64,000 nt of DNA, taken from IMG/VR virus record IMGVR_UViG_3300031772_000014, positions 1 to 64,000 of that record; one strand, written 5' to 3'. Positions 54,087 through 57,443 of this stretch are shown here, piece after piece. The notes under the pieces are model-generated. The model had not been told where the DNA came from. It ran no database searches and saw nothing but the letters and a program-made list of their open reading frames with translations. The position numbers were made by a program, and so were the translations under genes. The stretch is from a virus. How positions within the stretch are numbered: the stretch's first letter is position 1; every line of letters starts with the position of its first letter.

Positions 54087-55100
54087 TCAGAAGGCAGGGA
54101 GGACAGTTCCGTTGACCCACACCGTGACCCGCCCAGAGCTCAGGACATGCGGTGCGGCGGTCTCGAAGGTGGTCTTGAGGGTGATCCTATCCACGGCAAT
54201 CACACCCACAGTCCCTGGGAAACTTACCAGGGCTTGTTGACTTCCACCGCTTATCGCAGTCCACGCTGACAATCGGTCAGCGGATGGCCATCCCTCGTTC
54301 ACGGAGAAGTTCCTGTCAGATAGGCCTGCCCCGTATGACCTGTCTGGCCCAGTAACTTGGAAGTCCCTGAGCGTGGTGGGGCTCCTTTGTCCAGCGGAGA
54401 ACCCTAGCCAGTAAAGAGTCCAAGGGTCTCCGTAAAGGATCTCGAAGCTACCGGCTGGGTTCAGGGACTTGATTTTCAGGAAGTTGCCGACAAGGCTCAC
54501 CGAGGCCCCGCCACCAAGTTGAACCTGTAGCGCGACCTGTAGCGCCAGGAGACTGGTCCAGTTTAGGGTAGTTACAGTGACTACCCCGACCACCCCATCC
54601 AACTTGTATCCGAAGAGACCGTCGTAGGTCACGAAGGGGTACGTGTAGAGCCCTACATCCGCGCCAAGGATGGACGGTTCCAGCGCACCGATCCGCAGCG
54701 TACAAAGAGGGACCAACAAGGTCCCGGCAGCAGCAAGTCCTGCCGAGAGCGTAGCGGTGGTGGTCGTGTCTCCGGCCGAACCAGGGACGATGATTGGGTG
54801 CGACAACGCCAGGCCGATTGACTCGATGAGGAACGCCGGTTTCTGCGGAACCGCCACGGTGTCGACAAGGTGCCCCGGGTTCAGCGGCGGCAACCAGATG
54901 TCATTGAAAAGGACAACCCCACCAGGCCCAGACGAAAGACCATTGAGCACGATGTCTCGCGCGAAGGAGAACTTGGCCCCAACGCCACCACGTAGGTCAG
55001 CGTTCGTGGTACCGACACCGTTGGGGTACGTGGTGATCTCCGGGTCGTACAGGAAACCACGCTGCGTGTTGACGAAGAACTTTGGGTAGGTGCGGTCCAT
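54087..55100 (-). CDS. Tail-associated protein (337 aa; separate gene if TTA is stop)
   Basis: ATG (MDRTYPK) 9 nt after an in-frame TTA, with AGGA at RBS spacing. Confidence 0.55.
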   Translation of the reverse strand: MDRTYPKFFVNTQRGFLYDPEITTYPNGVGTTNADLRGGVGAKFSFARDIVLNGLSSGPGGVVLFNDIWLPPLNPGHLVDTVAVPQKPAFLIESIGLALSHPIIVPGSAGDTTTTATLSAGLAAAGTLLVPLCTLRIGALEPSILGADVGLYTYPFVTYDGLFGYKLDGVVGVVTVTTLNWTSLLALQVALQVQLGGGASVSLVGNFLKIKSLNPAGSFEILYGDPWTLYWLGFSAGQRSPTTLRDFQVTGPDRSYGAGLSDRNFSVNEGWPSADRLSAWTAISGGSQQALVSFPGTVGVIAVDRITLKTTFETAAPHVLSSGRVTVWVNGTVLPAF

Positions 55101-55109
55101 GTTCGATCC

Positions 55110-57443
55110 TAACGGTACCGGGTAACCGCCGGTCCTCTCCCAGAAGATGTTGTTTCCTAGCTGCCTGCCCACGTAAACGTCGATGGCCCCATTCGGCCCA
55201 AAGGTCGGGGTCAAGAAGATGTCCAGTAGGTTGAAGAACGTGGGGACCGGTACCAGGAAGGCGCTATCGGAGAAACATCCGATGAGAACCAATGAAAGGC
55301 TGGTGAGTGGGTTCTGTCGGTGGATCACCAACCTCACCTCGCTATCGATCAGCGCATTGATCGACACGTTCCTGAGAGCAACAACCAGTAGCGGGCTTGG
55401 ACCCACGTACGAGGTAGAGATGAAGATGGACAGACCATCGTAGGTGGGGACCGGGACGATGTTGCTCGCGGTAACGATGGTCTGGATGCTCTGGCCAAGC
55501 TGCTTGCCGGCCACGATGCCGTTGTAGTTGTTGAGCGGCCCGTACGCCAACACGTTGCCGGCAAGGGCCAGGATGTTGCCCTGCTGGGAGATGATATCGT
55601 CGATGAAGGTGGCGGACTTCATGGAGATGCTGCCCACGAATGAGAAGATCCCACCAGAGCCGGTAAGTATCGACTTGGTTTCGTACGTGGACCCGGTGTT
55701 GCCGACCGACAACACTCTGTTGAAACCACCCCACGCGAAGGCGGTGTCGTTGAAGGGATCTTGACCTTGCGCGTATACCTGCATGAACCCGGTCGGTACT
55801 TGTTGAAGCAGCAAATCTGTAACCTTGGGGGGTTGGGCGTACACCATTCCCCGCGGGATGCTGCCGAACGGAAGCGAGCCGTCTGCCTCTCGCTTCTCGT
55901 CGATGCCATCACCCACGAAGAACTCCATGCTGAGCCAACGCGTGAGTAGTCCCTGGGTGCCCGTGAGGACATCCGGTTGCTCCCCATCGACAGACACAAT
56001 CAAGCAGTTCTGCGCCGAAGAGGCGAAGAGCTTCTCGATGAAGTACGTCCGGCGGCGTAGCGCAAGGCCGGTCGAGTCGACGTGCTCTATCTCGAGCATG
56101 TCGTACCCAACAGAGATGGCCGAGATGCGGTCAGGACCAACCGTCAGCCAGAACCGGTTTGGTGCGGTCATGGTCAGAAGGGTTCGCCCCGGTACCGTGA
56201 CCTTGTCGAATACCACCAGGGAGTTGGGCGTGATGGCCGTGAAGTTGCTGGACTCTGAGGGCTGCGTGTCCGTCCGGGGAGATACCCCCAGGAACTTCGC
56301 CATGCCCGGAAGCGGGGCACTGTGGGTAAGGCTGATCAGAGCGTTGGTCAGCGAACGACCACCGTAAGCCACGAACCCAGAACCGCCGCCGAAACCCTTC
56401 TGGGCACCAGGACCGGAGATGTCGAAAAAGTCATCGAGATGCGCGGTCCAGATGGCATCCAGAGGATCCAGGTACATGGTCCGGTACGCAGAGTCGGTGT
56501 TCCAGAAGTCACGCTGGCTCCACCCGCTCATGGCCGGGCCGGTACGCTGGTACCAGCTACCACCACCGGCCTGGTTGTGCTGGATGGCCGGCAGCCCGCT
56601 GTTGGTCGGTACCGTCGCGGGGATGTCGGCCACGGTACCCCGGCGATACCGCTCGTTCATGCCACTCAGCGCCAGGTCCCAGACCGTCGACACGTAGGGG
56701 CTGTTCCACCACGTGGATACACTGGGGGTTCCGTTCAACCTGAAGAGCTGCTTGACTACTTGATCCGCGGCCCCGACCTGCCGGCGCCCGATGGGGTCCG
56801 GGGTAGCGGTGCTGAGGTACCGGTGGACCCGGTAGTGAACCCGGAAGACCGACCAGGGCCGACCAGGCACGATGGGGACGTTGAGGTTGAGCGTCACCGC
56901 GCCGGCGGGAAACCCGGAACCGATCACCGCGCCCGCGATGCTCGCCACCACGACCTTCGTGGCCGGGGGCACGAAGAGCTCATTCCCGAGCGTGTCCGTG
57001 ACGACGAATAGTTCCTGCGGGCTCGTGGCAGGTGCATCACTCACAAACGGGAAGTCCGCGGCAGGGATGACCACACTGGTAAGGTTGCCAGGGCCTGCAT
57101 TGCTGTACCCACGGAAGGTAGGAACCGCAAAGCTGTTGTGGAGGAGGTCATCGAGGTAGTCGATGTTCTCCGCCAGGGCGCCATGGCCCCTGTTCGCGTC
57201 TGACGCGGTCGCGTCCTCCCCGAAGGCCCAGAAGTACGTGCCCTGGTTCGGCCCACCGATCTTCTGCCCCACAGCACCGAGGAAGTTGTCCACCGGGGCC
57301 GAGCCGAGACCACCCACACCACCGCTCGCGACGTTGATGTAGTCGTAGGTCTTGCCGGTGGTCTGTGCGGCCGAACCGCCAGTCGGAATCGAAACGGCGA
57401 AGAGCCAGGCGGGGTTCGTGAAACGGTGAAAGCGGGTGGGCAT
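55110..57443 (-). CDS. Tail fibre-like protein, paralog A (777 aa, ends at TTA)
   Basis: AGGAG RBS; collinear similarity with 58139..60331. Confidence 0.6.

Follow-up and report, generated by a model that had tools for sequence, protein, structure and literature searches.

A probable gene boundary at an in-frame TTA codon of a high-GC tailed phage and the likely use of UUA as a stop codon in its clade

The stretch of viral DNA considered here (the window) corresponds to positions 1-64000 of the 75,150-bp contig IMGVR_UViG_3300031772_000014 of IMG/VR, which has a GC content of 61.6% and a CheckV completeness of about 41%, and which derives from a tailed, high-GC phage with related complete genomes of about 185 kb. 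The minus strand of the window carries an open reading frame (ORF) of 1118 codons terminated by TGA (57443..54087), whose codon 778 is an in-frame TTA (55112..55110), hereafter site 7. The minus-strand sequence around it reads GGT TAC CCG GTA CCG TTA GGA TCG AAC ATG GAC CGC ACC. The TTA is thus preceded by 777 codons, the last of which is CCG (55115..55113), and 9 bases past it an ATG (codon 782; 55100..55098) opens a 337-codon stretch that extends to the end of the ORF. An AGGA Shine-Dalgarno-like motif (55107..55110, minus strand) overlaps the last base of the TTA and stands 6 nucleotides ahead of the ATG, which is within the range found in the contig, where such a motif precedes 38 of the 66 called genes with spacers of 4-12 nucleotides (mode 7). 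The initial annotation of this DNA had pointed out that TTA, AGGA and ATG share one frame, and that proteins of 777 and 337 residues would result if the TTA acted as a stop; the sequence and coordinates were verified and the codon arithmetic is correct.

The ORF is the last part of a cassette of four putative minus-strand genes. The first, fib1 (60331..58142, 730 codons), ends at a TTA (58139..58141) located 10 nucleotides ahead of the ATG at 58128, where partner1 starts (58128..57457, 224 codons). The latter ends at another TTA (57454..57456), again 10 nucleotides ahead of the next ATG (57443), which opens the tail-fibre-like gene fib2 (55113..57443, 777 codons). The TTA of site 7 (55110..55112) is the proposed terminator of fib2, and is followed by partner2 (54087..55100; 337 codons plus TGA), whose product begins with MDRTYPKFF. 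The designation "tail fibre" is positional, because the cassette adjoins tail-module proteins, lying directly downstream of Baseplate_J-like and PKD-domain proteins, and because neither fib2 nor the other cassette proteins matched any Pfam or PHROG family. Structure prediction was not more informative for partner2: an AlphaFold2 model built on a four-sequence alignment was poor (mean predicted local distance difference test score, pLDDT, of 36.5), and the ESM Atlas returned only viral clusters without a name, all scoring below 0.9 and headed by one of 333 residues, which can be taken as a lead only.

Gene calling with a codon log-odds model trained on eight long ORFs gave 66-67 genes and about 24,000 codons for the whole contig. 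TTA is the rarest sense codon in this set, with 8-9 in-frame occurrences (0.33 per 1000), the counts of other A/T-rich codons, which are spread through genes, being 26 for ATA, 35 for TAT, 45 for AGA, 54 for TTT and 96 for CTA. The in-frame TTAs are found at positions 2109, 2671, 10007, 16384, 17700, 51011, 55112, 57456 and 58141. With the exception of 55112, each of them is placed at the 3' end of a gene or at the point where coding potential collapses. Three (2671, 17700 and 51011) are followed by a standard stop after 0-5 codons, while the other six have none within 40 codons. Past the TTA the log-odds score flips from +0.31 to -0.56 at 2109, from +0.18 to -0.27 at 10007, from +0.24 to -0.36 at 16384 and from +0.35 to -0.29 at 58141, and at 57456 the GC content of third codon positions falls from 0.73 to 0.53. 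If read with the standard code, the genes ending at 2109, 58141 and 57456 would acquire tails of 257, 95 and 102 residues, respectively, that overlap the next gene; the tails at 58141 and 57456 proved on translation to contain much Arg, His and Pro. For the terminase such a tail would have 49 residues. Position 55112 is the only site lacking a nearby standard stop at which the coding score remains positive past the TTA, because there the next coding region shares the frame. Six candidate internal TTAs (34222, 34183, 51254, 71794, 71773 and 74647) all proved to lie upstream of conserved starts, so that none of the 8-9 in-frame TTAs of the contig is internal. The standard stops are nevertheless still in use, TGA ending 41 genes, TAA 16 and TAG 9.

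Comparison with relatives, in which the proteins of this phage were cut at their TTAs and then set against the relatives' loci, revealed what occupies these positions in other phages. A terminase search of IMG/VR provided ten loci and a fibre search provided locus L001. The latter belongs to record G001 (94 kb) and the terminase locus L002 to record G002 (17 kb); the two records probably represent one phage, since the terminase is split across their ends. A complete genome of 184,953 bp, G003 (loci L027-L036), served as outgroup. The terminase large subunit (TerL) ends in ...WQG-TTA in the phage studied here, in ...WQG-TGA in L002, in TAG in L003-5 and in TAA in L009. The decoration gene ends in TTA here and in L002, in TAA in four loci and in TAG in one. 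Gene 3025..2672 has TTA here and TGA in L004, the spike gene has TTA here, five loci having TGA or TAG no more than one codon away, and the RNA polymerase gene ends in CAC GTG TAC TTA TGA here and in CAC GTG TAC TGA in G001. Altogether, a TAA, TAG or TGA of the outgroups falls at the same position, or at most one codon away, at five of the nine TTA sites, and the probability that five of nine sites coincide exactly by chance was roughly estimated at about 2e-11.

The swap also occurs in the reverse direction. The DNA polymerase gene ends in GAT GCT AAG TTA in G001, in TAA in the phage studied here and in TGA in G003. Likewise, the TTAs at G001:60708 and G002:8236 correspond to TGA here, and those at G001:41086 and G002:4910 to TAA. 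The same pattern was found in L037, a contig binned in a metagenome-assembled genome (MAG), with a TTA at 19266 that matches a stop of L004 in the alignment. Exchanges between TTA and TAA, TAG or TGA were thus seen at no fewer than ten orthologous sites. In-frame TTAs number 17 in G001 and 3 in G002, and most are at gene ends or junctions, the exceptions being two in out-of-frame tails past a first TTA and one upstream of a start. These swaps between orthologues indicate that TTA behaves as a synonymous stop in a clade that comprises this phage, G001/G002 and L037. In the more distant relatives L006, L007 and L009, TTA is found inside genes. The outgroup G003 is almost devoid of it, with 3 TTAs in 52,286 codons (AAA, ATT and TTT being present 311, 312 and 167 times), and one of the three lies inside a continuous RNA polymerase alignment and is therefore a sense codon there. 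As far as G003 itself is concerned, UUA is avoided specifically, although it does not serve as a stop codon there. It looks as though loss of the TTA codon came before its reuse as a terminator, an evolutionary order that we infer from these genomes.

At site 7 itself, the L001 orthologue, which is 49% identical overall, reads CAC CCG TTA GGA TTC AAT ATG AAC CGC ACC. L001 thus retains the TTA of site 7 (L001:8299), together with those of the two upstream junctions (L001:5303 and L001:5988), and such retention at 49% protein identity argues against the chance survival of a rare synonymous codon. The fib2 orthologue of this locus (L001:6001-8298) is 51% identical. Furthermore, fib1 and fib2 are paralogous, sharing 29% identity over residues 1-599 (E 3e-42), and in a global alignment of the four fib copies, two from the contig and two from L001, the sequences ...YNAT, ...FAAP, ...YPVP and ...YAHP each end directly before a TTA. 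As the gene that follows fib1 is out of frame, this position can be taken as the true C-terminus of the fib family.

The other half of the ORF has homologues of its own. Stand-alone homologues of partner2 escaped a word-based search but were recovered by an exhaustive HMMER search with the 337-residue part, which returned six clusters. In P0009, a stand-alone protein of 353 residues, Met1 (MDRTIPREF...) aligns to Met782 of the ORF (MDRTYPKFF...), and P0007, P0010 and P0011 are also short homologues of partner2. By contrast, P0005 and P0008 were called as "fused" proteins, the P0008 junction being ...PVPLGAIMDRTF. The protein P0006 (853 residues, from a 97-kb contig) follows the fibre as far as ...HYSVPLG and then continues with some 80 residues that are rich in Arg and have no alignment partner. 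Back-translation of this tail in the +1 frame is compatible with the partner2 pattern MDRTYPK.F...QRG.L.D.E at 38 of 79 positions (shuffled sequences: mean 17.4, maximum 26) and places a Met 10 nucleotides past the leucine codon; therefore, the two genes appear to be out of phase in that phage. P0003 ends in ...AAL, whose leucine aligns to the TTA. For P0003, P0004, P0005, P0006, P0008 and P0009 the junction codons were deduced from the protein sequence alone. P0003 (835 residues, from an ENA contig of 4,650 bp) is also of note in another respect, being 94% identical to fib2 over its first ~560 residues while having an unrelated C-terminal part with a 50-residue insertion, a kind of domain swapping that is typical of receptor-binding proteins within one population and that, like the neighbouring genes, favours a tail module. 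Scanning metagenome contigs with the fibre alignment found no relative, scans of viral contigs with P0009, P0008 and P0006 gave nothing new, and Megablast and tblastn searches against GenBank phages gave no match. The initial annotation had proposed to see whether the homologues are two genes, and this is what P0009, which stands alone, and P0006, with its parts out of frame, indicate; the homologues are neither always fused nor supplied with ordinary leucine codons at the junction.

The spacing of the junctions explains how a boundary of this kind can be hidden. At junctions like site 7 the TTA is separated from the ATG by 9 or 10 nucleotides, because the Shine-Dalgarno sequence begins inside or right after the TTA. 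A 9-nucleotide spacer results in an in-frame "fusion", as seen at site 7 and at G001:44357, G001:90296 and G001:73344, and a 10-nucleotide spacer results in a frame change. It follows that fib2 and partner2 would be in frame because their spacer has 9 rather than 10 nucleotides, and not because a fusion is made. Phase does not seem to be under visible selection, since the sister phages differ in this respect at site 4, where TTA CG ATG puts the junction out of frame in the phage studied here and TTA CAG ATG puts it in frame in G001. Two of the G001 junctions, TTA GGA GGC AAC ATG at 90296 and TTA GGT GAC CAC ATG at 73344, are hidden junctions with the shape of site 7, and standard gene calling would fuse the genes on either side of them.

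Taken together, these data make it highly probable that the 1118-codon ORF corresponds to two genes, with the TTA at 55112 ending fib2 and partner2 starting at the ATG at 55100, and that UUA is interchangeable with UAA, UAG and UGA as a terminator in this clade. The hidden gene boundary put forward in the initial annotation is in this way supported by concordant observations: TTA is placed at gene ends and is equivalent to standard stops in orthologues, it is conserved at the junction, the paralogue ends at the aligned position, and the downstream gene is independent, with homologues that stand alone or are out of frame. Several points weigh against this reading. It is from comparative genomics alone that we infer termination at UUA, and the 9-nucleotide in-frame spacer was kept in three lineages (this phage, the G001 group and P0008). 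Neither this contig nor five related records yielded a class-I release-factor domain (PF00472), and no tRNA genes were found in this contig or in G001; with the contig about 41% complete, translation-related genes could lie outside it. The MAG holding L037 has a tRNA-Leu(UAA) and carries TTA inside genes at 0.34 per 1000 codons, so that UUA would be readable if this were the host, binning being weak host evidence. To these may be added that the ORF is uninterrupted in translation table 11 and has positive coding potential on both sides of the TTA, making a fused product possible from the sequence. The last point, along with the database homologues P0004, P0005 and P0008, called at about 1,085-1,108 residues, is what would be expected if TTA were simply a rare leucine codon within a single 1118-residue protein. 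Such ordinary decoding is nevertheless very unlikely, because a rare synonymous codon would not be retained as TTA between proteins of only 49% identity, all other in-frame TTAs are at gene ends equivalent to standard stops, and downstream homologues that are alone or out of frame exist, in addition to a paralogue that ends at the aligned position.

A less extreme possibility is that UUA mostly terminates while some ribosomes insert an amino acid, giving rise to a functional 1118-residue read-through isoform that joins the fibre to its partner. Programmed read-through of a stop codon produces the A1 fusion protein of phage Qbeta, and here too an in-frame ORF directly follows the terminator codon of a virion gene. 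The frames are in phase, with a three-codon G-x-x linker in three lineages (GSN in this phage, GFN in L001 and GAI in P0008), and leaky termination is to be expected where no dedicated release machinery acts at UUA. However, unlike in the Qbeta case, the downstream ORF has its own Shine-Dalgarno sequence and ATG, it is separate in relatives, and no common phase is maintained, given that the two parts are out of frame in P0006, that P0009 exists as a protein of its own and that site 4 switches phase. Moreover, the 9/10-nucleotide spacing follows from the distance between Shine-Dalgarno sequence and ATG, and read-through at most other same-strand junctions would add out-of-frame residues alone, the next gene being out of frame. 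A purposeful dual output is consequently rather improbable. The leaky long isoform suggested by the initial annotation is neither supported nor contradicted: decoding UUA as leucine does yield an in-frame fusion, but nothing requires the isoform and the in-frame arrangement is not conserved.

Sequencing or assembly error deserves consideration, given that a single base separates TTA from TAA. This explanation has hardly any probability left, as the pattern is common to three or four divergent genomes, the same TTAs are present in separately assembled genomes with protein identities of 49-87%, sixteen genes of this contig end in normal TAA, and contigs from two other sediment samples (X2 and X3) keep the TTAs at 57454-56 and 58139-41. 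Among the contigs listed from other samples none bridges site 7, which is covered by the probable source sample only. Scarcely more credible is UUA-triggered bypassing, in which ribosomes would stall at the UUA and hop over an undecoded spacer, joining the fibre to its partner. There is a precedent in the terminase gene of the Streptomyces phage phiHau3, which is interrupted by UUA-headed blocks of about 10 nucleotides and for which bypassing was proposed when the cognate tRNA is absent (PMC10732093). The spacers described here, TTA plus 9-10 nucleotides, are similar in form, and in both cases a phage takes advantage of a UUA codon for which decoding by the host is poor or absent, with a short UUA-headed block after coding sequence; the UUA avoidance of related phages such as G003 is also reminiscent of phiHau3. 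The two systems differ in that the phiHau3 blocks interrupt one essential gene for a continuous, conserved protein, whereas here UUA replaces the stops of many genes, and in that no link to a Streptomyces host was shown for this phage. In addition, the downstream part has its own Shine-Dalgarno sequence and ATG and is found alone in relatives, the fib paralogues end at TTA, and at site 7 the sole CCG downstream of the CCG take-off codon would resume translation out of frame. Most TTA sites, finally, end stand-alone proteins (TerL, RNA polymerase, DNA polymerase, decoration protein).

Returning to termination at UUA, the likeliest mechanism would be that UUA lacks an efficient decoding tRNA in the infected cell, that ribosomes release the peptide at this codon, and that the chain is freed by a release or rescue factor of the host, or by an unrecognised one of the phage. 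The families RF, PCRF and Pth were absent among the 25 listed of the 29 Pfam families matched by 54 other proteins of the contig, and the phage tRNAs found in relatives do not include a UAA anticodon. The 28 TTA sites share no extended motif, the base after the TTA being G at 13 of them, C at another 13 and T at the remaining 2. Slippage by +1 onto TAG (T-TAG), possible at only 5 of the 9 sites of this phage and at 13 of the 28 in total, was therefore discarded as a general route. A timing switch was also set aside, as the TTA-ended genes include both replication (G001 DNA polymerase) and virion genes. Host assignment from the MAGs with related contigs (Deltaproteobacteria and Anaerolineales bins) was considered unreliable. 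In a more speculative and rather doubtful version of the scheme, UUA would be a conditional terminator set by the availability of a UUA-reading tRNA in the host, as with bldA in Streptomyces, with 55112 acting as a switch within a clade-wide sense-to-stop code.

In relatives, a small module is located just past the terminase (L002:1668-2165, L037:11860-12391, G003:97286-97819 and L016), composed of a 97-residue ORF that is weakly PTH2-like (E 0.0066, below the cut-off) and of tRNA-like genes. The anticodon loops of the latter are abnormal, consisting of a 6-nucleotide UGAAAA or CGAAAG, of a "His" loop, GAAUGGA, lacking U33, or of 8 nucleotides in G003. This module was not linked to the mechanism, because it is also present in outgroups that have no TTA stops and is absent from this contig. 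The triplet 10005-10007 of the contig is used on both strands, being the TAA stop of a helix-turn-helix gene (9288..10007, plus strand) and the TTA at the end of the terminase (minus strand), and this sharing looks like the result of a deletion, because in L002 the module lies between the same two genes. As for the remaining features, a minus-strand ORF of 2,148 residues (17695-24141) contains segments resembling the beta subunit of multisubunit RNA polymerases (PHROGs 25354 and 24349 and several "RNA polymerase beta subunit" families) and looks like a fused phage RNA polymerase. The plus-strand block 24400-51910 includes the Pfam families UDG, dCMP deaminase, deoxynucleotide monophosphate kinase, DnaB, primase, RecA-like, RusA and SNF2 helicase, listed for the block without assignment to single genes, and its nucleotide-metabolism families might point to modified DNA bases. 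The stretch 34120-34290, upstream of the conserved start MEKLSGLLLDVYDD, is kept in this phage, G001 and G003 despite stops in some of them, and is probably a conserved regulatory or divergent-promoter region.

Translation table 23 of NCBI, that of Thraustochytrium mitochondria, has TTA as a stop. To our knowledge, TTA is known in this role only from a few mitochondria, and literature searches yielded no description of a phage or bacterium in which UUA acts as a stop. As in table 23, UUA seems in this clade to have left the leucine set, being found at gene ends alone; but table 23 belongs to mitochondria, which have a small genome and translate it with a system of their own, whereas here a tailed phage is concerned in which the standard stops are still used. 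Among phages, stop-to-sense recoding has been described, in which crAss-like, Lak and other large phages have reassigned TAG or TGA (PMC8346664; bioRxiv 10.1101/2020.07.20.212944). Those phages resemble the present clade in that the code deviation misleads standard gene callers, and differ from it in that the change goes in the opposite direction; no suppressor tRNA is involved in the sense-to-stop change proposed here. From this direction it follows that genes become over-extended or fused instead of fragmented.

If UUA does terminate translation in these phages, the genetic code would have changed from sense to stop outside organelles, for which the literature searches gave no published case, and about every seventh gene of the clade would be over-extended or fused by standard callers. 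The boundary at site 7 is the most difficult to recognise, as no frame change, overlap or drop in coding signal betrays it. Should UUA be a conditional terminator, the phage would make the fibre and its partner as two proteins in one state of the host and as a fused fibre of 1118 residues in another, and the code of the clade would either differ from that of its host or be imposed on it.

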